DNA of 64,000 nt from Gammaproteobacteria bacterium (GTDB lineage Bacteria > Pseudomonadota > Gammaproteobacteria > JACKNK01). The stretch lies in the NCBI GenBank assembly GCA_024234955.1, contig JACKNK010000001.1, positions 212,835 to 276,834 on the forward strand, in the 5' to 3' direction. Positions within the stretch are counted from its first letter, which is position 1, and each line of letters opens with the position of its first letter. Both the position numbers and the translations under genes were made by a program. Below, piece after piece: positions 1,947-58,052 of the stretch. A model generated the notes under the pieces. The model saw only the letters and a program-made list of their open reading frames with translations, ran no database searches and was not told the origin of the DNA.

Positions 1947-2546
1947 TTAGGCGACATGCGATACCTGATTGAGAAATGTACGCATAGCTTTTCGGTAACG
2001 AAAGAGCATTGAAAAACCGACAGTCAACTCGTCACCAGCCTGCGGCAAGGGCTCAATGAATGATCTGACTATCTTGATTGATTTGTCGTTCCACACACCT
2101 TGTCCGTGTGTAAGTACGTTTCGTACTGCTACGAGTTCAAAGCAGCCATTTGCTGCCCAGTGATAGCGTTGATCCAACCCTTTCTTGAGCTTCTCGACTT
2201 TTGACTGAGGAAAATTTCCCGCTGTTTCACCCCGTGCGGAAAGCGCTTCATTCATCATTTCATCAAGGATCACAACGAGATCTTGCACCAGCATCTTAAT
2301 TACTTGTCGAGATGTGTCTTCGAAGTGCATTGAAGGATCACGCCTGAAGGTAAGCACCTTCTTCCCCTCGGGGTGCGCTAGAAGAACGGAGTTGTAAGAG
2401 CAGTCTGGTGTCACCCAGGTATGCGCGTCGCGAGCGCGCTGATCCAGACTGGTCAAATCTCCAAACTGTTGTTCCCTCGAGATATGTAGCGAGTGAATCA
2501 GAGTGTAAAGAGTGCTGGTCCAGACGTTGACTCTCTCCCAGTCCAC
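1947..2546 (-). CDS. Hypothetical protein in a low-GC island, with a possible HEPN-like Rx4H motif (RNVLTH).
   Basis: 199-aa ORF in a ~48% GC patch. It points the same way as the next two genes. It contains the RNVLTH motif. Confidence 0.45.
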   Translation of the reverse strand: MDWERVNVWTSTLYTLIHSLHISREQQFGDLTSLDQRARDAHTWVTPDCSYNSVLLAHPEGKKVLTFRRDPSMHFEDTSRQVIKMLVQDLVVILDEMMNEALSARGETAGNFPQSKVEKLKKGLDQRYHWAANGCFELVAVRNVLTHGQGVWNDKSIKIVRSFIEPLPQAGDELTVGFSMLFRYRKAMRTFLNQVSHVA

Positions 2547-2607
2547 TTGGATTTCCTCCTATCAAACATCCTTTTGGATGTTTTCGTGGTAACGGGGGAG
2601 AGCCCCA

Positions 2608-3078
2608 TTACGCACAAACTGGCTCAGATTTTAACTTTTCTTCGACGCGAATTCGGTGGCGATTAGAAAGGATGGCTTTTTGTTGTTCTATATCGAGATA
2701 CCTATAACTCTGTGGTGCTACGAACCCCGACATTGCAATGCGCAGGTGTTCTAGTCTTATCGGCTCGATAGATTCGTAATGCGAAAGTTGAACGGCAAAT
2801 CCTGCATCTTGATCTTGGAAGTAGTGGTCGAAGCGATCACGGGAAAGTCCTACTTTTGCCCTATGACGCGCCCACAACTCCGTTGGCTTATCTACGTCGA
2901 TACTCGCAACGCGAACCCTGCCTAGAATCGCCCCGACAGGCAGGGTTACATACAAATAAATCCATGTTCCTTCAGGTGCATCAGGAAAACGGCGGCGCAG
3001 TTCCACGGTCTTTGATCCGCCGGCGATCTTCTCAGCAAACTCTGGTGCGACAGATAACAAAATTGCACGACCGTTCAT
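2608..3078 (-). CDS. ASCH-domain (PUA-like) protein.
   Basis: 156 aa. The N-terminus ILLSVAPEFAEKIAGGSKTVELRRR resembles ASCH/PUA-like beta-barrel proteins. It overlaps the upstream gene by 4 nt, which suggests an operon. Confidence 0.5.
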   Translation of the reverse strand: MNGRAILLSVAPEFAEKIAGGSKTVELRRRFPDAPEGTWIYLYVTLPVGAILGRVRVASIDVDKPTELWARHRAKVGLSRDRFDHYFQDQDAGFAVQLSHYESIEPIRLEHLRIAMSGFVAPQSYRYLDIEQQKAILSNRHRIRVEEKLKSEPVCA

Positions 3079-5162
3079 GCCAACATCCTCATGCCCTCTT
3101 GGTAGACCTCTGTAAACAGCCCCTCTGGCACACGCAAGGGTCCTGGCACACGATTTTTTGTGCCCATGTGGTCAAGGATTAAGTTTTCTAGCCGTTTCCA
3201 TGGCAACGGACAGACCAGTAGTTCTGTTTTCGCAAAGTGATACGCCTTCAGTTTCGCGGAAGGATCTCCTCCTGCGGCGTCCAAAATATTCTGCCATGTG
3301 TACGCACCGAGACGATGGAATTTTCTCGACAAGCGGGTCGCCTCGTCCGTCTCGGTTCCCAGGCAGAGTGAGACTGCACGGACCTCGCTGACAGGGCTGC
3401 TCACGTACCAGAGGATTCGGCTTCCCTCGGGGATCACAACGTTCGACCGAGAGTAGTAGACGTTTTCTAACGCCAGTGCAGGGTGTTCCGGGACATCAAA
3501 AAAGTCGTTTTCCGCGAGATCACGATCGAACAGCGCGGTTGCCCAGTATTTCTGGATTGGAACGATGTAGGTCGATATGCCAGCTCCAAGGACCTTGAGG
3601 GGCCAGAACATCGCCTCAAGTTCGCGAGGTTCGAGGGCGGCCAGTGTCGACACATCTGGGAAGTGGTCGTTTATAAGGTCAATCGCGCCCGTTACATCAA
3701 CCATCTCTCGTAGGGTCTGGAACACAAGAATTCCATCACGCGAATACTGAAACCCCAGTTCCAGAAGAGCTTCCTGAATATCGCCAGAACCGGGGTCATC
3801 GATCATTACGGAGGTGAGCCCCTGCCTATTCGCAATCTCAATCACATCTGCTAGGGCACGCCGCAAGAGCGTACCGGTCAACGGGCCACTGAGAGTGCGG
3901 AGAAAGCGAAGGCGTAGCGAACTGGGTGGCGACTGATCGACGGCCAGGGCTACTCGCGGATGCTCTCCGCGCACGCCGATTAACTGGACTGTGCATCTGC
4001 TGCACGACGAGAGGGTGGTTCGTATCATCCTCAGCCAAGTCGCTTTGGTTTCTCCAGAAGAGAATCGCTGAAAGGGCAGAAGGTCATGTTCCGTGACGAT
4101 CGACCGTCGCTCAACGCGTGTACCGTTGAGACGAACCGGCGCGTATGTTTGTCCGAGAAAATTCCCTTGTAAACGAGCCACCATGTCGCAAGGACGAAGT
4201 ACGGTTAACCCTGTTACCGTCAGAATGTCGTCCGCATGATCGAGAAGAACTTCATCGCGGGTCGCGAAATATTTGGCACCGTCCAGGGATGCATGGGCGA
4301 GTTGGCGACGGTCGGAAAAGTCAGAGTGGGTAACCGGCGTAGGCATTACGTCACCGATCTCGTCCAGCATCTCGTCTAGCTTGTCAGGATGTCCCGCGAG
4401 TTCTTCGAATCGATGAAAGTATGACAACGCCCGTTGCCGCTTTGCGGGGTCCGGTTGGCGTGAGACTTCATTACGAAGTTCACGGGTTACACAAATTTCG
4501 ACATCATCAAGCCAATCACTTAGTAACCCTCCACTCTCCTCATAGTGTGGGGCGGCAGGATCCATGATGTCGAAAAAGACATTGGCATCGATCGCAATTA
4601 GGCGGGACGGTGCTCCAGGCGCGTCCCGGATAGCTCGCAACAGCGGTGCATCATCTCGATTGACTCGGCGCCACTCAAAAAGTGGCATTGAGTCCGCACC
4701 TCGACCGACTATCTCGTTATCCAAGGCGAACCCGTGTTTCGGCCATAACTGATTTGCAGCCTCGTAGTCTTTGCGGCAACGCAAACGAATCGCGTTGGCG
4801 TCCTTGCTTAGATGAATCAGGTGCCGCAAGAGATTTTCGGAGCAATCAGAACCGCGGTGCTCCTCCGCAACACACAGGTGCACCAAGACGACCTCGCCCC
4901 TGGAGCGTCTCCAAGCTGCGTACCCTAGTAGCTCCTCGTTCCGCGTATGGGCAAGAACACAGCCGGCATGTACGAATTCGTCTAACGCGCCACGCGGAAG
5001 AAAGCCGAGTGTGTTGGAGTTTTTACGGTACAAATCCCACACTTTATCCACCAGGATTGAACCAGGTGGTACCAGGGAAAGCATGCTTTCGGTCATCCCT
5101 GCGAATCCTTTCCTTTCGTATGTGCCAATTAGTACGTAGTCATTCGCTTGGTGGACGAGCAC
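3075..5162 (-). CDS. Multidomain protein: N-terminal GNAT acetyltransferase, a PIN nuclease domain, a second GNAT-like region, and a C-terminal domain of unknown (possibly PUA/EVE-like) fold.
   Basis: 695 aa. The GNAT motif is LVHLCVAEEHRGSDCSENLLRHL. The PIN motif is LIAIDANVFFDIMD. A second acetyltransferase-like stretch reads LTSVMIDDPGSGDIQEALLELGF. GC is low. Confidence 0.55.
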   Translation of the reverse strand: MLVHQANDYVLIGTYERKGFAGMTESMLSLVPPGSILVDKVWDLYRKNSNTLGFLPRGALDEFVHAGCVLAHTRNEELLGYAAWRRSRGEVVLVHLCVAEEHRGSDCSENLLRHLIHLSKDANAIRLRCRKDYEAANQLWPKHGFALDNEIVGRGADSMPLFEWRRVNRDDAPLLRAIRDAPGAPSRLIAIDANVFFDIMDPAAPHYEESGGLLSDWLDDVEICVTRELRNEVSRQPDPAKRQRALSYFHRFEELAGHPDKLDEMLDEIGDVMPTPVTHSDFSDRRQLAHASLDGAKYFATRDEVLLDHADDILTVTGLTVLRPCDMVARLQGNFLGQTYAPVRLNGTRVERRSIVTEHDLLPFQRFSSGETKATWLRMIRTTLSSCSRCTVQLIGVRGEHPRVALAVDQSPPSSLRLRFLRTLSGPLTGTLLRRALADVIEIANRQGLTSVMIDDPGSGDIQEALLELGFQYSRDGILVFQTLREMVDVTGAIDLINDHFPDVSTLAALEPRELEAMFWPLKVLGAGISTYIVPIQKYWATALFDRDLAENDFFDVPEHPALALENVYYSRSNVVIPEGSRILWYVSSPVSEVRAVSLCLGTETDEATRLSRKFHRLGAYTWQNILDAAGGDPSAKLKAYHFAKTELLVCPLPWKRLENLILDHMGTKNRVPGPLRVPEGLFTEVYQEGMRMLA

Positions 5163-6501: not shown

Positions 6502-7416
6502 CTAAACGCGCGGCAGCTGCCGAATGACCTGCCGCTGCAACTCCTCGTTGCTGTGTACGTATTCCAGGGTGGACCGGTAGTCGTTGTGTCCCATCAGTTC
6601 CTGCAGGGTGCGTAGATCCGTTTTTGGCGCAAGCATGGTACCGAAGGTGTGTCGCAGCTTGTGCGCGCTGATCGGGATGCTCAGATGGTCGGAGAGGCGG
6701 CGAAAAAAACCGCTGATTTGCTCCGGCGTCAGTTCATCCCCTTTGAAGCGTGTCGTGAACCGGGTCACGTTGAAAAGCTGTTCATCCTGGTCATCGATGC
6801 AAACCTGTATCTCTGACCGGTTCAGCAGGCGCACGAGATGGGGCAGTAAGAGATCCGAGATCGCAATGTCGCGGGCCTCTCCGTTCTTCGAGAACTCGGC
6901 CCGGAGGTGGATGGCGCCAGCGCGAAGGTCGACGTCACCAACACGGATGCCGGCGAGTTGGCGCCGGCGGATTCCGGTGAAGAACAGCGTTCGTATCGCT
7001 GTCGCCCAAAACCAGCCTGGCTCCAAGGCGCAGTCTGGCCCCTCCAGGTAGTCAATCGCAGATTGCACGGTCTCCAGCTGAAGAGACTTCGGCAGCTTCT
7101 TGGGTGGACGTAGCGTTACCCGATCGAAGGGGTTGCTCTCGATGCCTGATTCCACGACATCTTTGCGCAGGAACTCCCACAGGGCCCGCATATGCACGGC
7201 GTAGTTGTTCCAGCTCCGGATCGCTGCTCGGCTCAGTACCTGCTCACGCCAGAGAAGCACGCCTTGCCGGGTCAAGGAGGCCACGTTCCCCACAGGATGG
7301 CCCAGGGCCTCCAAATCTCGCTCGGCGAGAGCAATGACTGTCTGGTAGTGACGCATCGTCGCCGCGCTGGGTAACCGCTCCAGGCGGTAGGCGTTCAGTG
7401 CATCCCACAGTGTCAT
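6502..7416 (-). CDS. Tyrosine site-specific integrase/recombinase of the phage-integrase family, XerC/XerD-like.
   Basis: 304 aa. The C-terminal catalytic region AHKLRHTFGTML...LMGHNDYRSTLEYVH carries the R-H-R-Y signature. Confidence 0.85.
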   Translation of the reverse strand: MTLWDALNAYRLERLPSAATMRHYQTVIALAERDLEALGHPVGNVASLTRQGVLLWREQVLSRAAIRSWNNYAVHMRALWEFLRKDVVESGIESNPFDRVTLRPPKKLPKSLQLETVQSAIDYLEGPDCALEPGWFWATAIRTLFFTGIRRRQLAGIRVGDVDLRAGAIHLRAEFSKNGEARDIAISDLLLPHLVRLLNRSEIQVCIDDQDEQLFNVTRFTTRFKGDELTPEQISGFFRRLSDHLSIPISAHKLRHTFGTMLAPKTDLRTLQELMGHNDYRSTLEYVHSNEELQRQVIRQLPRV

Positions 7417-36643: not shown

Positions 36644-36721
36644 GCGAGACGCCTGCCCGAAATTCACCAAGCAGCCAGGGGCGACAACAACGCTTGCGCG
36701 CGCTTCGGGCAGGCGTCTCGC
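36644..36721. repeat. Perfect 18-bp inverted repeat, gcgagacgcctgcccgaa / ttcgggcaggcgtctcgc, with a 42-bp spacer, in the non-coding leader upstream of pilL.
   Basis: Both arms were read directly from the sequence. Confidence 0.7.
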
Positions 36722-42116: not shown

Positions 42117-42572
42117 TTAGAGCAGGCCGCGTTCCGCGAACGAAACGGGTTCGTCCGCACCGACGACCAGGTGGTCGAGAGTGCGGACATCGACGAGGGA
42201 CAGCGCCTCTTTGAGACGCCGGGTGATGGCCATATCCGCACCGCTGGGTTCAGCGACGCCGGACGGGTGGTTATGCAAAAAGATGACGGCGGCCGCGTTC
42301 AGTTCGAGAGCGCGGCACACGACAACGCGGGGATGGACGGAGGCACCGTCGATGGTGCCGGTGAACAGTTCCTCGAAGGCAATCAGGCGCTGCCGAACGT
42401 CGAGGAAGTAACAGGCAAAGACCTCGAACGGACGTTCGGAGAGTGCCAGCCTGGCGTGGGCTTTTACCGATTCAGGCGAACTGAATTCGGCGGCGTCACA
42501 ACGAGATGCCATGCGCCGTTCGAGGATTGAGATCGCACGGGCAATGACGAGGGTTTCGGAATCGAATTTCAT
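42117..42572 (-). CDS. radC: RadC-family JAB/MPN-domain protein.
   Basis: It has the HNHPSG JAMM motif, and [15 protein letters not shown] is typical of RadC. Confidence 0.85.
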
Positions 42573-42897
42573 GAGGCGTGTCTCCAGAAGTAGGGGAGAC
42601 AGCGCCCCAATCCGGGGACGTGTCCCCGTTGGGATGAAGCAAGAGCCCCCTGACCGAAGTCAGCGCACCGTGAAGGGCTCGAAGCGGTGCAGAAGTCGCG
42701 GAGACCGCGACGAAAACCTTGCCTGGTCACCCTCAGCGAGGATGACCAGGCAAGGCCCCGGTCAACCGGGGCAATGCTGAGTCAGCGTTTGTTGCGATGG
42801 TGTTCCTGGCGGTATGCAACGAAGCCCAGCAGGGCCACGAAAACCGCGATGAACGTGACCGCGACGGTCACAGGGTGAGTGATGAACTCGATCATGG

Positions 42898-43092
42898 TCA
42901 TGGCCGTTGATCCTCCTTATGCACAGAGGATAGCCCGGACAACCAGACGACCGCACCGATGAACATCGAGTACAGCGCGGTGGGTGTCGGAGCCTCATCC
43001 AGGATCAAACCGATCAAACCGGCCAACAACAGACCGATCCCCAGATTGCGGAGATCCGCCTTGAAGGCCGTGGTGTCGATGGTGAACGTCAT
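42898..43092 (-). CDS. Small membrane protein.
   Basis: 64 aa with two hydrophobic helices. Confidence 0.3.
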   Translation of the reverse strand: MTFTIDTTAFKADLRNLGIGLLLAGLIGLILDEAPTPTALYSMFIGAVVWLSGLSSVHKEDQRP

Positions 43093-44367: not shown

Positions 44368-44583
44368 TGGGGTTTCCTCCAGAGGAAATGAAACCGAGAG
44401 ACACACCGATCTCCCATCCGGGAAGGCGTGTTCCCGGTGGGATTGACGTTGAGAAGTGGGACTCATCGATCGCTGGGAGCGGTCGATCGCGACGTTACGG
44501 AGTCCGAGGCGTCGCTTTAGTCGGCCTACCGAAGCAGGCACGAAACTGATTCGGACCCTAGATCAGGTCCGAAGAACAGGCAG

Positions 44584-50654: not shown

Positions 50655-50692
50655 CTGATCTAATGACTGAGGCCCCTAATAGGGGCCTCAGT
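50655..50692. terminator. Bidirectional rho-independent terminator: perfect hairpin gactgaggcccct-aat-aggggcctcagtc with a T run, between convergent genes.
   Basis: Read from the sequence. Confidence 0.7.
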
Positions 50693-50701
50693 CATTTTGG
50701 C

Positions 50702-52219
50702 CTATGACCCAATGAGCGACGTTCCCTTGCTGCCGGCTTGCTCAGCCAATTGTTGGCCTCCTCGCTCAGTTAGTCGGTTTAGCGCGTCCGTCGTCCTGTG
50801 GCCGGCGATAGCCATCATGTAGCTCCATGCCAGCGGAAAAACGATGTAGAGCGATAGCGTGACCAGGTTGAGCATCATCATCTGGTTGTTCGCTACGTTG
50901 CCGATCCAGTCGTCGACGCTCCATTCATCGTTGAGGCGAGCGATCATTTCGTTGTCGATCCAGTCGGCCAACCGCCACAGAACAGTCCACATACTGATCG
51001 TGAAGTAGGCGAATGAGTAGTTCACAACCGCTTCCCATCCATACCCGGAGAACAGCAAGCCAAAGGGCATCGTCCACACAAGGATGAATAGCAGGAATGC
51101 TTGAATCATCGGGAAAGCAACGATTACTGCGTCCATGGTGAACTCCATGATGGCGTTCATGATCCAGGTTCCGATTACGGTGATTGCACGTTTCCCGGCG
51201 GATGTAAGTAGATCCCAGAGCCCGTCGGTCGCCTTTTCTTGATTAAGGTCCGGTCGTGTTGCAACAGCTCCCGTGTTGTCCAGCAGTGCTCGAACCACAC
51301 TGTCCTCGGCGGCTTCACGGTCAACCAAGGACTGCAACGAGACGCCAAGGCCCCCGAGGATCCCGAGATTGACGCCTTGAGCGTTGGCCTGGGTTAGCAG
51401 CTTCTGCTTCAACCCATGACTGTTGTCGGACCACCATTCGTCACATCGAGGTCGACCGTAATCTGCTGTCACCTGGCCGTTATCGTCGTACCAACTGAAC
51501 GACCAATCACGACGTTCCGTCGTCGCCTGCATACCAGCGCCACATACATTCGGGTTGCTGCATGGCTTGTAGTAGCCGGACGTCTCCAGGAGGACGTGAG
51601 ACCCCATCCAATCGACGTCTTCACCCCATTGGTCGATTGCATCAATGGCTTCGTACTCCGGCCAGGCGCGTCGATCGGCAGGCGCGGCCGCAGGCTTCTC
51701 CTGTTGATACTTGGCCAGCGCCGGCAGATAGCACTGCGAGTAGAACTCGTTGACCTCGGCGCGCAACGCCTGGTCGCGGATATTGATTCCGGAAAGGTTG
51801 TGCAGCACGGCGCGTAAGTCGTCTCCCTCCGGCATCAATGCTTGGCCGGCCGCGACGAAGGCCTCGGAGGTCTTCACGATCAATGCCCACCACATCGGTA
51901 CCTGGACGTGGGTCGGTATATCCCGATTCGAGTTCGACGGGATCGCCTGTCCACTGTTCAAGGTGATCAGTGGCGCCAGGCAGAACAGGATGACGACGAT
52001 CGAGCGGTAGAAGTCGATCTCGATCTGCTGCAACGCCAGCATCGCGCCTGGCTTTATCGGTGAGCTGGCCTTATGGCCTTCCACCCATCCCGAAATGATG
52101 AACACCACGAACGGCAGTAGGTATAGACCGGTTGCGCTGAACAGGTGCCACCAGCCGTTGAATCCATGCCACCCAAAGAGGGCGGTGTAGGCATCAAGGG
52201 CGGAGAGGGATTCGAGCAT
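50702..52219 (-). CDS. TraG N-terminal-domain-like integral membrane conjugation protein.
   Basis: 505 aa with several transmembrane segments at both ends and a large periplasmic loop. Confidence 0.5.
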   Translation of the reverse strand: MLESLSALDAYTALFGWHGFNGWWHLFSATGLYLLPFVVFIISGWVEGHKASSPIKPGAMLALQQIEIDFYRSIVVILFCLAPLITLNSGQAIPSNSNRDIPTHVQVPMWWALIVKTSEAFVAAGQALMPEGDDLRAVLHNLSGINIRDQALRAEVNEFYSQCYLPALAKYQQEKPAAAPADRRAWPEYEAIDAIDQWGEDVDWMGSHVLLETSGYYKPCSNPNVCGAGMQATTERRDWSFSWYDDNGQVTADYGRPRCDEWWSDNSHGLKQKLLTQANAQGVNLGILGGLGVSLQSLVDREAAEDSVVRALLDNTGAVATRPDLNQEKATDGLWDLLTSAGKRAITVIGTWIMNAIMEFTMDAVIVAFPMIQAFLLFILVWTMPFGLLFSGYGWEAVVNYSFAYFTISMWTVLWRLADWIDNEMIARLNDEWSVDDWIGNVANNQMMMLNLVTLSLYIVFPLAWSYMMAIAGHRTTDALNRLTERGGQQLAEQAGSKGTSLIGS

Positions 52220-54190: not shown

Positions 54191-54433
54191 TCAATCCGCC
54201 TCGCGCAGATACTCCGGCAAGCCCTTCCGGGCACCGATCGTGCGGATCTTTTCGCGGGCATGTTTCTCCATGTAGTAAATCGCCTGGTGCGAGCATCCGC
54301 AGACGTCGGCAATGTCCCGACAGCTGAGCGTCTGTCCCGGCCTGGCGACCGCGCACAGCACACTCAGCCCCAGGTCGATATCCCGGTGTTTCTCGGGCGA
54401 TGTGGTCGGGTTGCGGCGTAACCGGGTATTCAT
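54191..54433 (-). CDS. Small HTH DNA-binding protein.
   Basis: It has the HTH LSCRDIADVCGCSHQAIYYMEKHAREKI. It overlaps the topB stop. Confidence 0.4.
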   Translation of the reverse strand: MNTRLRRNPTTSPEKHRDIDLGLSVLCAVARPGQTLSCRDIADVCGCSHQAIYYMEKHAREKIRTIGARKGLPEYLREAD

Positions 54434-56604
54434 GCCTTAACCCACTCGAAGTGCTTGCACTCCGGGAACCTGCTGCATCCGAGAAAGGGTGAACCCGGAC
54501 TGTTGCCGCCTTTCGTGGAACGCAGCACCAGCTTGCCGTTACCGCAACTTGGGCATGTCTCACCGGCGCGCCCGGGCGTCGGCGCATCACCACCGCTCGC
54601 GGCGCCAGGCGCCGCGCTGCGCTTCCCAGGCTTGCCCTTCAGATCAGGCAACGTGGTCTTGCAATCCGGATAGTCGGTGCAACCCCAGAAGAACCCCTTA
54701 CTGCTTTTACGCCGCTGCATCGGCTTGCCGCACTCCGGACAGGCGTGTTGCGCCGCCGCCGGCGCGGCCGCGATCGCCACCGCGCCAGCCTGACCGACAA
54801 GCGCCTGCAGTGTCCGCAGCTGCTGATCCATGAACTGATCCAACGTCATCTCGCCACGCTCGATCTGAGCCAGCATTTCCTCCCAGATCGCCGTCGTCGC
54901 CGGGTCGCTGACCGGCGACGGCACCGCGTCAACCAGTGTTCTGCCGTTCGGTGTCGACTTCAGGGCTTTCTTGGCCTTTACCAGCAAGCCGCGTTGCACC
55001 AGATTCGCGATGATCGAAGCGCGTGTCGCCTCGGTGCCGATACCGGACGAATCCCGTAGCCGCTTCTGCAGATCCGGATCATCAACAAACCGCGCTGCGT
55101 TCTTCATGGCAGCGATGAGCGTGCCTTCCGTGAATGGCGCCGGTGGCCGGGTCAGTTTCCGCTCGATCTCCGCATGACCGGGTAATGCCTCGTCGCCGGC
55201 CTGAACCGGCGGCAAGGTCTGCACCTCGCCGGCGACGTCGTCATCGTCGCCCAGCACCACGCGCCACCCAGTGACACGCGGGACACGGCCGGTGACACCG
55301 AAGAACGAAGCGGCGCACTCGATGCGGACCACCGTCTCATCGAACTCGTAATCCGGGTAGAACTGCGCCAGGTAGCGCCGACGAATCATGTCATAGACCG
55401 CCGCTTCATCGGCGGACAGCTTCCCCATATCCACGGTCGCCGCGGTCGGGATGATCGCGTGGTGGGCAGTGACCTTCTTGTCATTCCAGGCCCGTGACCG
55501 GTGCCCGGCGTCCGCGTCGTCGACCAGGTCGACGAGCGCCGCGTCGGACCGCGCCATCGCGGCGAGCACATCCGGTGCATCGCCGAGCTGACTCTCCGGC
55601 AAGTAGGAACAGTCCGAGCGTGGGTAGGTCGTCGCCTTGTGCGTCTCGTACAAGGCCTGCGCGATGCTCAGCACCTGGTCTGCGCCGAGCCCCAGCTTCG
55701 CGTTGCAATACTGCTGCAAGTCGGACAGTGAAAACGGCAAGGGCGGCGGCGTGCGCTTTCGGGAAGTGTCCGCCTGGAAAATCTCGCCGACGGGGCGTGG
55801 CGTCGCCGACAGGGCGGCGACTACTGCCTGGGCCGCCGCTTCGTTGACGCAGCGGTCTTCATCGTCGGTCACCGCCTCTGGAGCGATCCAGCGCGCGGTC
55901 AGCGGTCCGCGCGGCGTGGAGAACTGCACGGCCAGCACCCAATACGGCGCCGGCGTGAAATCCTCGATGGCACGGTCGCGCTCGACGACCAGGCGCAGGG
56001 TAGGGGTCTGAACCCGCCCGACCGGGAAAAGTGCGTCGTGGCCAGCACGCCGCGCGAGCAGGGTGTACAGCCGTGTCAGGTTCATGCCGATCAACCAATC
56101 GGCACGAGCGCGACCAAGGGCAGCTTGATACAGCGATTCCGTCGCAGACCCTGGGCGAATGCTCGCCAAAGCGTTCTTGATGGACGCAGAGTCCAGTGCC
56201 GTCAGCCACAGGCGCGTGACGGGCCCGTGCCAGCGGCATTGATCCAGGAGCTCCCGAGCGATCATCTCACCCTCGCGGTCGGCGTCGGTTGCAATCACGA
56301 CCGACGAAGCCTTGCCGAGCAGCGTCTTGATTACCTTGAACTGACCGCGACCACGTGAGGTCACGCCTAGCTTCCAATCATCAGGAGCGATCGGGAGATC
56401 TCCCAGCTCCCATCGCTTGTATCGCTCGTCGTAGGCGTCGGGCGTCTGCATCTCCAGCAAGTGCCCGAGCGCCCAGGTCACCATCTGGTCGCCGCCATCG
56501 ATGTAGCCATCTCCCCGTCGCGTGAAACCCAGCACCTGGGCGAGGTCTCGTGCTTGGGACGGCTTTTCGCAGATGTAGATGCGTGTCATGAGAGTTCTTC
56601 CCAC
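54430..56604 (-). CDS. topB: DNA topoisomerase III (TopB-like) with C-terminal zinc ribbons.
   Basis: It has a TOPRIM N-terminus (MTRIYICEKPSQARDLAQVLG...DADREGE), the catalytic Tyr region, and C-terminal CPECGK/CPSCGNG motifs. Confidence 0.9.
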   Translation of the reverse strand: MGRTLMTRIYICEKPSQARDLAQVLGFTRRGDGYIDGGDQMVTWALGHLLEMQTPDAYDERYKRWELGDLPIAPDDWKLGVTSRGRGQFKVIKTLLGKASSVVIATDADREGEMIARELLDQCRWHGPVTRLWLTALDSASIKNALASIRPGSATESLYQAALGRARADWLIGMNLTRLYTLLARRAGHDALFPVGRVQTPTLRLVVERDRAIEDFTPAPYWVLAVQFSTPRGPLTARWIAPEAVTDDEDRCVNEAAAQAVVAALSATPRPVGEIFQADTSRKRTPPPLPFSLSDLQQYCNAKLGLGADQVLSIAQALYETHKATTYPRSDCSYLPESQLGDAPDVLAAMARSDAALVDLVDDADAGHRSRAWNDKKVTAHHAIIPTAATVDMGKLSADEAAVYDMIRRRYLAQFYPDYEFDETVVRIECAASFFGVTGRVPRVTGWRVVLGDDDDVAGEVQTLPPVQAGDEALPGHAEIERKLTRPPAPFTEGTLIAAMKNAARFVDDPDLQKRLRDSSGIGTEATRASIIANLVQRGLLVKAKKALKSTPNGRTLVDAVPSPVSDPATTAIWEEMLAQIERGEMTLDQFMDQQLRTLQALVGQAGAVAIAAAPAAAQHACPECGKPMQRRKSSKGFFWGCTDYPDCKTTLPDLKGKPGKRSAAPGAASGGDAPTPGRAGETCPSCGNGKLVLRSTKGGNSPGSPFLGCSRFPECKHFEWVKA

Positions 56605-56825
56605 GGATCAATTCCAATGGCAGATCTGAAGGTCTGCCGTAGGCGATCAGGCGCACTCCGGTCGCCGGACAGCGCCATGTAGACGAGAGAGCGAGCGCAG
56701 TTGGCGCGCTCTGCGATGTCCTTGATTTCCACCGATTCGAGACGTGCCAGTAGCTGGACTGACAACGTGAGTGGGACACCGTGTTTTGTGAGATCTCGGA
56801 AGATTGCCTCGTTCCGCGTAGACAC
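56586..56825 (-). CDS. Small HTH DNA-binding regulator.
   Basis: 79 aa with the HTH KDIAERANCARSLVYMALSG. Confidence 0.4.
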   Translation of the reverse strand: MSTRNEAIFRDLTKHGVPLTLSVQLLARLESVEIKDIAERANCARSLVYMALSGDRSAPDRLRQTFRSAIGIDPWEELS

Positions 56826-56855
56826 AGTTCACCTACTTGTCTTAGTTTGTCGGCC

Positions 56856-57115
56856 AATGACCATGGGGTGGGGGCACGGTCCTCGTGTTCGTTTCCGCAA
56901 AGCTCGCCATCGAGCAACGGTAACGTTCAAGCGAACGATGGCCCCTTTGGTGGTGGCCACTCCGAGAGTGGCTCACTACCCGTCGGCCCACGCACCGGTG
57001 CCGACTTACCGGAGCGACCCCTCTGAGCACCCTTGGCCGGGGTGTACAGAGCGTTGCCACGACGTTTCGTGGTGCTTGAGCGGCGACGTCGCCGTGCCCC
57101 CACCCCATGGTCATT
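56856..57115. repeat. Perfect 24-bp inverted repeats, aatgaccatggggtgggggcacgg / ccgtgcccccaccccatggtcatt, flanking a ~212-bp non-coding segment. Its structure is MITE-like.
   Basis: The arms at 56856-56879 and 57092-57115 were read directly. The right arm overlaps the stop of the RepA-like gene. Confidence 0.7.
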
Positions 57116-58052
57116 TCTTTGTTTTGTTCTTTACGTTCACCGGCCTTACATGCGTCCGTGACGGATAGAGCCGTAGGTATTCTGCGTCGTGGTCGACACG
57201 CGCTTGGGGAAACACCTGAAGGACGTGCTTGAGGTTTGGGATGAAGCCCTTGTTCCTGAAGTCACGTAAGCCCTGAGTGGTGTCGGGATAGCCGGCCCCG
57301 AACTGCTTTTGCAGGTAGATCCAGGGGATCGGCGTTGGTCGCCGTAAGTACGAGAACCGATGTGTGAGCCAGCAGTAGATGTCCATGGCCATCGAGGAGC
57401 CACGCAGCGCGTGCATGGCTTGAAGGCTGATCGGAATTGGTGCGGCGGTTACTTCCTCGAAGAAGTTCTCAGAGAGCTTTACGGAGGACTGACCTAAGCC
57501 AAGCTGGTTGGGGTTGTCCGGATCCCACCAAAGGCTGACGTCATCGGTGATGTCGCATTTGCGCTGTGAGAAGGCCTTCCCATCGTCGTAGATGATCCGG
57601 ATCGATGCCGTGAACAATTTGATCGACTGGTCACGCACGACTCGAATCGTGCCGCGTTGGCCCCCCGTCATGTGATCGATGCCGATGTTGGCCAGGTAAT
57701 CACCGAACGTGGCGCCGAGGCCGATCCATCGCTCCTTGGTTTCGACCGCGCGCGTCGTCAACCAAGCGAGGATCAGTCGCGGCTTTGGCCCGTAGGGCAG
57801 GCCGTATCGCGGATCGGAGCTCACCACGACTCGTAGATGGCCATTCGCACGTTCGTGGGAGTAGGCACGGGTGCGTGCGTGGGGCAGGGTCGCACGGGCC
57901 AGTGTCTGAGCCATGTATCCGACCGCGCCGGCGGCGCGGGCTTCTTCGGTCTCCTGTCCCAACGCCTCCTCATACAGCAGATCGAGCGAGGCTTGCTGGC
58001 TCGCCTGCTCGGTCGCGGACAGATCGTTATCCAAGGCGTGACGTGAACTCAT
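57111..58052 (-). CDS. Conserved ICE protein, possibly a replication-initiator-like (RepA/RPA-family) protein.
   Basis: 313 aa. It is located between parB-like and topB, as in related ICEs. The family assignment comes from memory of the element layout, not from a motif. Confidence 0.35.
   Translation of the reverse strand: MSSRHALDNDLSATEQASQQASLDLLYEEALGQETEEARAAGAVGYMAQTLARATLPHARTRAYSHERANGHLRVVVSSDPRYGLPYGPKPRLILAWLTTRAVETKERWIGLGATFGDYLANIGIDHMTGGQRGTIRVVRDQSIKLFTASIRIIYDDGKAFSQRKCDITDDVSLWWDPDNPNQLGLGQSSVKLSENFFEEVTAAPIPISLQAMHALRGSSMAMDIYCWLTHRFSYLRRPTPIPWIYLQKQFGAGYPDTTQGLRDFRNKGFIPNLKHVLQVFPQARVDHDAEYLRLYPSRTHVRPVNVKNKTKK

Follow-up and report, generated by a model that had tools for sequence, protein, structure and literature searches.

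What is the function of a long perfect inverted repeat that closes a short interval between two genes of a conjugative island? The question was raised by a stretch of 64,000 nt from contig JACKNK010000001.1 of a Gammaproteobacteria bacterium (assembly GCA_024234955.1, positions 212,835 to 276,834), which is called the window here. The sequence AATGACCATGGGGTGGGGGCACGG at 56856-56879 returns at 57092-57115 as its exact reverse complement, with 24 of 24 positions complementary and a spacer of 212 nt, and this confirmed the 24-bp repeat with a spacer of about 212 bp that had been described in an initial annotation of the same DNA. When up to three mismatches were allowed, the 24-mer of the arm was still found only at those two sites in the 64-kb window, and the pair is the longest well-separated perfect inverted repeat within it. 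None of 100 dinucleotide-preserving shuffles reproduced a 24-nt repeat, which agreed with the earlier statement that such a repeat is beyond chance expectation. Judged by sequence comparison, the whole unit of 260 nt (56856-57115, minus strand, which is the strand of the surrounding genes) is a conserved multi-helix structured cis-element, a type of about 170-260 nt in which the 24-bp repeat is the predicted closing helix, named P0. Together with the small helix-turn-helix (HTH) gene downstream, it makes up a putative two-part cassette in the regulatory/establishment region of ICEclc-like islands, near topB, ssb and acaB. The evidence for the unit as a whole was the inverted repeat, the predicted folds and the covariance-model homologues in three other loci (L087, L093 and L089).

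The element lies between a RepA_C-family gene upstream (57111-58052, minus) and the HTH gene of 79 amino acids (56586-56825, minus), which is followed by a topoisomerase III gene, topB (54430-56589, minus; the ATG at 56589 is the start used in other assemblies). The 5' arm of P0 (57092-57115, minus) holds the RepA_C TGA stop codon (57111-57113) at its outer end. The initial annotation was therefore right that the right arm and the stop codon of the RepA-like gene coincide, but the overlap with this open reading frame (ORF) is limited to the outer 5 nt of the arm, that is, the stop codon and two bases of the last Lys codon. Between the 3' arm (56856-56879, minus) and the GTG with which the HTH gene starts there are 30 nt. 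A Shine-Dalgarno sequence for this gene, AGGTG, is found at 56830-56834, and its stop codon overlaps the topB ATG (ATGA). The interval 56856-57115 is non-coding, as had been proposed for the segment between the arms: G+C by codon position in the two frames that are open across it was flat (0.65/0.62/0.66, against 0.60/0.45/0.73 in the flanking genes), and gene callers placed no gene over it in three other assemblies. An ORF of 90 amino acids starting from the ATGA overlap was considered as a real gene and dropped, since its codon-position G+C was flat and it was never called.

The interval was then folded, which had been suggested as a check, and it folded far below shuffled sequences on both strands, both as RNA and as DNA. 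With RNA parameters, the interval with short flanks (291 nt) gave z = -7.5 on the minus strand and -8.1 on the plus strand, and with DNA parameters the 260-nt element gave -7.8 and -8.6, respectively. The 212-nt interior alone gave -2.4 (minus) and -4.2 (plus) with RNA parameters. A search of the whole window against Rfam 15 at gathering thresholds gave no match, and a relaxed search of 56500-57500 (E <= 10) gave chance-level matches only, including a weak terminator-like one to ncS16 at E = 0.24. Between 56500 and 57400, no promoter-like site (sigma-70, a -35/-10 pair) was predicted on either strand and no terminator-like site was predicted on the gene strand.

The DNA around homologues of the HTH gene was the source of further copies. 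A search for close relatives of the 79-amino-acid protein returned only the protein itself, and an exhaustive HMMER search gave 41 remote homologues including the query, mostly of 75-127 amino acids, with the family pattern ...GVPL..SV.LL.R...A..AG..R..LY..L.G.R.P...LR...LG.DPW. Many members match HTH_31/HTH_3, which means that the family is of the Cro/Xre type. We compared the DNA around eight of the homologues, all from metagenomes, and found similar island regions that adjoin AcaB, SSB and topoisomerase III. Six further copies of the element were found there, one of them partial, which makes seven in total with the window copy, all metagenomic, so the family is a rare one. An inverted repeat stands upstream of the HTH gene in L087 (arms of 14 nt, 197 nt between them), in L091 (14 nt, 142 nt between), in L093/L094 (23 nt with one mismatch, 188 nt between) and in L098 (15 nt, 136 nt between), and the second copy in L087 has arms of 13 nt with 222 nt between them. 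The arm sequences are unrelated from locus to locus and the closing stem varies from 13 to 24 bp; the orientation is constant and the repeat always ends 16-58 nt ahead of the HTH start codon. The chance of a perfect repeat of at least 14 nt in a 335-nt upstream region was estimated as about 2e-4 per locus. In L087, the element and the HTH gene are tandemly duplicated: the second element is at 702-949 and the second HTH gene, which is uncalled and 67% identical to the first, at 1008-1259. The start of a third element is found at the contig end in L089 (1228-1311). In the window, in L091 and in L098, P0 has the stop codon of the upstream ORF at its 5' base, and the Shine-Dalgarno sequence is unpaired in all copies. 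In L093, a sigma-70-like promoter that overlaps a palindrome lies about 20 nt upstream of P0.

The copies in the window, L087 and L093 share one order of parts on the gene strand, and in the window these parts are as follows (all minus). After the 5' arm of P0 comes the P1 hairpin (57057-57072; CCACG/CGTGG), with a conserved GAAAC loop, and then the conserved sequence GGCAACGC. The P2 hairpin (57021-57051; CTCTG/CAGAG) has a variable inner stem-loop, and compensatory changes among three sequences were seen in 3 of the 5 pairs of P1 and in 4 of the 5 pairs of P2. The conserved unpaired motif GGGGTC (57016-57021) forms the junction between P2 and the P3 hairpin (56995-57012; CCGGT/ACCGG). The P4 helix (56949-56980; GGTAGTG/CACCACC) encloses an inner hairpin and contains one mismatch, which reads as A.C on the gene strand and as a G.T pair on its complement. 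The conserved motif CAAAGGGGC (56941-56949) follows immediately 3' of P4, and a variable 3' domain (the P5 region, 56880-56940), whose fold is a single-sequence prediction with details that are not conserved, precedes the return strand of P0. L093 has GGCGCTGC in place of GGCAACGC and CAAAGGACT in place of CAAAGGGGC.

Because MAFFT misaligned the copies, the covariance model was started from the window copy alone and then iterated. The first model, built from the window core only with P1-P4 specified, was run against a search space of 104 kb and matched L087 with 30 bits (E = 1.3e-4) and L093 with 13 bits (E = 0.38). The model of these three sequences then matched the second copy in L087 with 23 bits (E = 2.3e-4) and the partial copy in L089 with 31-39 bits. 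In the three-sequence alignment, which was fitted to the model, 98% of the cells were standard pairs and 11 of 21 pairs had changes on both sides; none of 500 shuffles reached these pairing values, and controls in which the alignment was slid paired at 38-53%. In each copy, all of the helices examined by script are complementary. P0 itself has compensatory changes between L091 and L098 (G-C to A-U) and between the two copies in L087. Stems that vary freely and are yet complementary, together with conserved loops and junctions and a fixed orientation and distance, point to a folded single strand and not to transposon ends or operator arrays. The suggestion of a long-stem structured RNA or DNA was thus supported, with an interior whose sequence and structure are conserved in other islands. 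The relevance to oriT or nic sites that had been mentioned with it gained no specific support, although no test aimed at it was made. No description of the element was found in the literature searched, and with no match in Rfam either, we treated it as a new family of structured cis-elements.

The copies in L091 and L098 are a shorter variant without P1 and P2. Both types share the closing stem, its position and the order GGGGNC-P3-P4-AAAGGG, and the flanks of the short type have parts in common with the window, namely AATGA... at the 5' base and ...CATT...CAAnCTAA..AGGTG past the 3' base. We infer from this architecture, the position and the short motifs that the short type probably belongs with the long type.

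As for what the element does, we tentatively favour a cis-acting RNA structure in the mRNA of a repA-HTH-topB operon, and we hold this at somewhat less than an even chance. The operon is tightly coupled, with stop/start overlaps on both sides, and has no gene-strand terminator or promoter predicted in the region scanned, so transcription of the gene strand is to be expected. The element would then be transcribed within the mRNA that runs from repA through the HTH gene to topB. P0 would loop out about 210 nt and bring the repA stop codon close to the ribosome-binding site of the HTH gene, which would itself be left unpaired, 21 nt past the 3' base of P0. A perfect duplex of 24 bp is a textbook substrate of RNase III, and P0 may be such a target. 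The core and the conserved purine-rich unpaired motifs may serve as a platform for a factor, either a protein or a ligand, and the bound factor would set the processing, stability or translation of the HTH-topB message.

Several observations weigh against this RNA reading. A functional precedent is lacking, Rfam holds no matching family, and all of the sequences are metagenomic. Two HTH homologues, in L096 and L099, have no element. The pair counts come from three sequences in an alignment fitted to the model, the long-type sequences number only three to five, and blastn, nhmmer and the covariance model linked no short-type copy to a long-type copy. All three non-Watson-Crick positions in conserved helices (in P4 of the window, P0 of L093 and P4 of the second L087 copy) are A.C on the gene strand, which is G.U/G.T on the opposite strand. 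Composition-corrected fold z-scores were also better on the opposite strand for four long-type copies and for the window interior, whereas the short-type copies scored better on the gene strand.

The same structure could instead work as folded single-stranded DNA (ssDNA), and this is the strongest alternative, which we hold somewhat below the RNA reading. The strand in question would be the transferred or template strand (the plus strand of the window), acting during conjugative transfer or rolling-circle replication, either through priming of the complementary strand of the ssi/sso type or through a promoter of the Frpo type that expresses the HTH gene, topB and ssb before the second strand is made. 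The G.T positions on the template strand and the better template-strand scores of the long-type copies favour such a function, and the plus strand of the window element folds as DNA with z = -8.6. The context is that of an establishment region, with topB, SSB, DUF3577, RadC, a methyltransferase and a toxin-antitoxin pair, and the two complete copies and the start of a third in one locus, in one orientation and with each complete copy ahead of an HTH gene, resemble Frpo. However, no -35/-10 pair was found on either strand in or around the element, and P0 with its 13-24 bp is too short to hold both hexamers, so a sigma-70 promoter of the Frpo type is not supported. A pure priming site would need neither a spacing of 16-58 nt to the start of one gene nor co-duplication with that gene, and the short-type copies fold better on the gene strand.

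Three known kinds of signal bear on this ssDNA function. Frpo and ssi are single-strand promoters or priming signals in the leading regions of plasmids such as F and ColIb-P9 (Masai and Arai 1997, as cited in PMC11541004). As far as that account describes them, they are like our element in being structured non-coding elements of a few hundred nt in the establishment region, directly ahead of genes such as ssb, with a fixed orientation and possibly several copies per element. According to the same account, the Frpo stem carries -35/-10 hexamers, of which the element has none, and forms one long imperfect hairpin, whereas the element has a multi-branch core, a closing stem of 13-24 bp and conserved unpaired motifs. 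The window element has no match among plasmid records, and it is from the description in that account only that Frpo is set apart. The STAXI motif (Rfam RF01728; PMC2864571) is a structured candidate of unknown function in mobile elements, where it stands close to ssb, topoisomerase, antirestriction and integrase genes, and the same question of RNA or ssDNA was posed for it. The element shares with it the mobile-element setting near ssb and topoisomerase genes, but STAXI is a tandemly repeated small pseudoknot of Enterobacteriales, whereas the element has another architecture and is bound to one HTH gene, and STAXI was not among the Rfam matches here even at E = 10. For this long-standing question on mobile-element motifs, the element offers a concrete case.

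Single-strand origins (sso) of rolling-circle plasmids and of ICEBs1 prime second-strand synthesis and fall into families with their own motifs (RSB, CS-6). An sso folds over 150-300 nt in a manner specific to strand and orientation and has conserved unpaired motifs, in which it is like the element, but it is not known to be tied to any one gene downstream. A more specific proposal, which we consider unlikely, is that the element represents a new class of conjugation-specific single-strand signal in proteobacterial integrative and conjugative elements (ICEs), in which the transferred strand folds in the recipient. A host or island enzyme would recognise the fold, be it a primase, RNA polymerase together with a factor from the island, or the HTH protein, and recognition would start second-strand synthesis, early expression of the HTH gene, topB and ssb, or both. 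If true, this signal would match Frpo/ssi in function while having an unrelated architecture and no sigma-70 hexamers.

In a third reading, the element is a complex of duplex DNA sites to which the adjacent HTH protein or a different protein of the island would bind, either with the arms as inverted identical operators for looping or autoregulation, or as an oriT-like locus with the HTH protein as accessory factor. In this case the arms would covary because both have to fit one protein rather than each other. The tight linkage to a gene for a DNA-binding protein and the locus-specific arms are as expected of a protein and a site that evolve together, and palindromic operator-like sites adjoin the element in L093 and L087. 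In ICEclc, the bisD-bisC-orf96323-PinR-inrR-ssb region is the control centre for transfer competence, and between orf96323 and inrR lie the bistable PinR promoter and the bisS sites, inverted repeats that serve the ParB-like regulator BisD (PMC12409273). Based on the text of that paper only, the element appears to occupy the equivalent position: genes resembling bisD and bisC (DUF2857) and one further ORF precede it, and a small regulator and ssb/topB follow. But the bisS sites are short palindromes (GAGCTATCCCCnGGGGATAGCTC) that are bound as duplex DNA, and no bisS-like sequence was found in the window. Four short internal hairpins with compensatory changes and conserved loops and junctions are the signature of a folded strand, the individual P0 arm is not palindromic in itself, and an oriT is normally single and not duplicated with a gene, so we regard a duplex site as improbable.

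That the unit is a plain large terminator or attenuator hairpin, or a fortuitous palindrome without conserved function, is very unlikely. The weak ncS16 match is terminator-like, and on the plus strand a T-rich run, TTTCTTTGTTTTGTTCTTT, follows the stem, but this run encodes the RepA tail and lacks conservation at the other loci. Directly after the stem, the gene strand reads GGCCGACAAAC, without a U-tract, and the "loop" is a multi-branched region of 212 nt, which is not terminator-like. The initial annotation would have reduced the unit to a hairpin of this kind if it were single-copy, without a target-site duplication and with an unconserved interior. It is single-copy in the window and no duplication was found, but sequence and structure of the interior are conserved in other islands, and for this reason it would be wrong to set the element aside as a simple hairpin of the terminator or attenuator kind.

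The possibility of a miniature inverted-repeat transposable element (MITE), raised in the initial annotation, fared worse still, and we give an insertion of the Correia or ERIC kind between repA and the next gene hardly any weight. Palindromic MITEs that are co-transcribed with genes, such as the Correia elements of Neisseria and ERIC, have many dispersed copies, conserved termini and target duplications. The element resembles them in size (260 bp), in its perfect 24-bp terminal inverted repeats, in its intergenic position within an operon and in a transcript hairpin that RNase III could cut, and it is absent from the closest related island, L001. However, it is single-copy in the window, with variable termini and a fixed gene partner, and no target-site duplication of any length is present at either boundary (flanks GTCGGCC| and |TCTTTGT). 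The search for further copies of the 24-mer, which found none elsewhere in the window, gave nothing in the outside collections scanned either: an exact scan for a 20-mer of the arm had 0 hits in 185,579 species genomes (one genome each) and 0 in JGI metagenome contigs. The element was also translated in all six frames, in order to detect copies hidden under mis-called ORFs, and 0 of 5.8 billion protein clusters matched. Plasmids, phages and E. coli genomes gave no match to the element in blastn searches. All copies stand beside the same gene family in the same orientation, and the arms differ between related loci while the interior is conserved, which is the opposite of terminal repeats recognised by a transposase. 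A Pfam scan of 32 window ORFs revealed no gene for a transposase, an invertase or a reverse transcriptase.

The least probable reading, also mentioned at first, is an invertible promoter segment whose 24-bp repeats are acted on by a recombinase: perfect repeats around about 200 bp ahead of a regulator gene are its typical geometry, but there is no promoter-like site inside on either strand, no adjacent recombinase among the ORFs scanned (the nearest, at 6502-7416 and the only tyrosine recombinase found, is about 50 kb away), one orientation in all four assemblies, and an interior that keeps its orientation relative to the gene in the homologous copies. Three other candidates were considered and dropped. 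For an origin oriV, there are no iterons and the region is not A+T-rich. For a retron msr-msd, there is no reverse transcriptase among the ORFs scanned and the neighbours are RepA_C, HTH and topoisomerase III genes. For inverted repeats of the Tn3 type, there is a mere 'GGGGGCAC' resemblance, with repeats that are too short and no duplication.

The window is an ICEclc/PFGI-1-type conjugative island. On the minus strand the gene order is ParA, a long ParB-like protein, DUF2857, RepA_C, the element, the 79-amino-acid HTH gene and topoisomerase III, and further downstream come a RelB/ParE toxin-antitoxin pair, TraG_N, AcaB, SSB, DUF3577, RadC, DUF3275, a methyltransferase and an SNF2 helicase. 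Comparison with L001, in which RepA is 94% identical and the DNA 81% identical, showed that the homology breaks sharply at 57139 and resumes at the topB ATG, and the slot between repA and topB in L001 holds three different genes in about 1.47 kb (1989-3477). With such sharp breakpoints, the element and the HTH gene, together with the final 8 codons of RepA, behave as a cassette in a variable slot (56590-57138, minus). L004 and L005 are identical to the window and L006 is identical across the element, all with the same island in the same orientation, so these three give no information on conservation. In eighty RepA_C loci from GTDB genomes, nothing resembled the element and no inverted repeat recurred 3' of repA, which means that the element is tied to the HTH gene and not to RepA. 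Searches for the cassette elsewhere were empty: tblastn of the HTH protein and blastn of the L093 and L091 cassettes against plasmids gave nothing, three of four motif-pattern scans of viral contigs were empty, and the 18 matches of the fourth and the 38 matches in metagenome contigs were all chance coding DNA or redundant phage.

Islands of the ICEclc/PAPI-1 type are vehicles by which genes for catabolism, virulence and resistance spread, and their early-establishment/regulatory region is only partly understood. A conserved folded element that moves as a cassette with a small HTH regulator, just before topB, would add a new point at which the expression of island genes or establishment is controlled. 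For annotation, the practical consequence is that gene callers put spurious ORFs across such elements and miss the real small HTH gene. ORFs of this kind were called over elements in L087 (128-433 and 695-886) and L093 (2622-2999). In the NCBI records of the metagenome-assembled genome, the HTH gene of the window is apparently unannotated, as RepA (MCB1733670.1) and topoisomerase III (MCB1733671.1) have consecutive accessions, and MCB1733670.1 is named 'pirin', apparently by mis-annotation.

Some further observations concern the related loci. The gap between repA and topB is a cargo hot spot, and L001 carries there a gene with a TraI_2_C domain and two unknown genes. L006, which comes from another sample, differs from the window by 45 mismatches only, all in 315 bp of topB (55759-56073), and this resembles a recombination tract. 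In L098, HU-like and CsrA-family genes are found at 69-624, two to three genes upstream of the element, and the island CsrA may be regarded as a candidate binder of the conserved AAAGG(G/A) motifs. L093 contains a 14-bp palindrome, GTGACACGTGTCAC, in three copies at about 2697-2710, 4033-4046 and 4238-4251; one overlaps a -35 that is predicted immediately ahead of the element, and the other two lie on either side of the region before ssb, which gives them the look of an operator or of parS/bisS-like sites.

Within the window, a tRNA-Pro (GGG) gene is found on the plus strand at 44441-44523, inside the island between the DUF3577 and SSB genes. A long version of the DUF3577 ORF overlaps it, and the tRNA may point to an att site inside the island or to a composite origin of the island. 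A perfect palindrome of 35 nt, AATGACTGAGGCCCCTAATAGGGGCCTCAGTCATT, at 50662-50696 lies 5 nt past the stop codon of the TraG_N gene (50702-52219, minus). Its probable role is that of a terminator hairpin, and it starts with AATGAC, as do the arms of the element. The intergenic region upstream of radC (42117-42572, minus), at 42573-42960, folds as RNA with z = -6.6 into several G+C-rich hairpins, one of them of 18 bp, and its match to the covariance model of the element was at chance level (E = 2.9). Other long perfect inverted repeats in the window are at 428-478, with arms of 22 nt and a loop of 7 nt, and at 36644-36721, with arms of 18 nt that are 42 nt apart.

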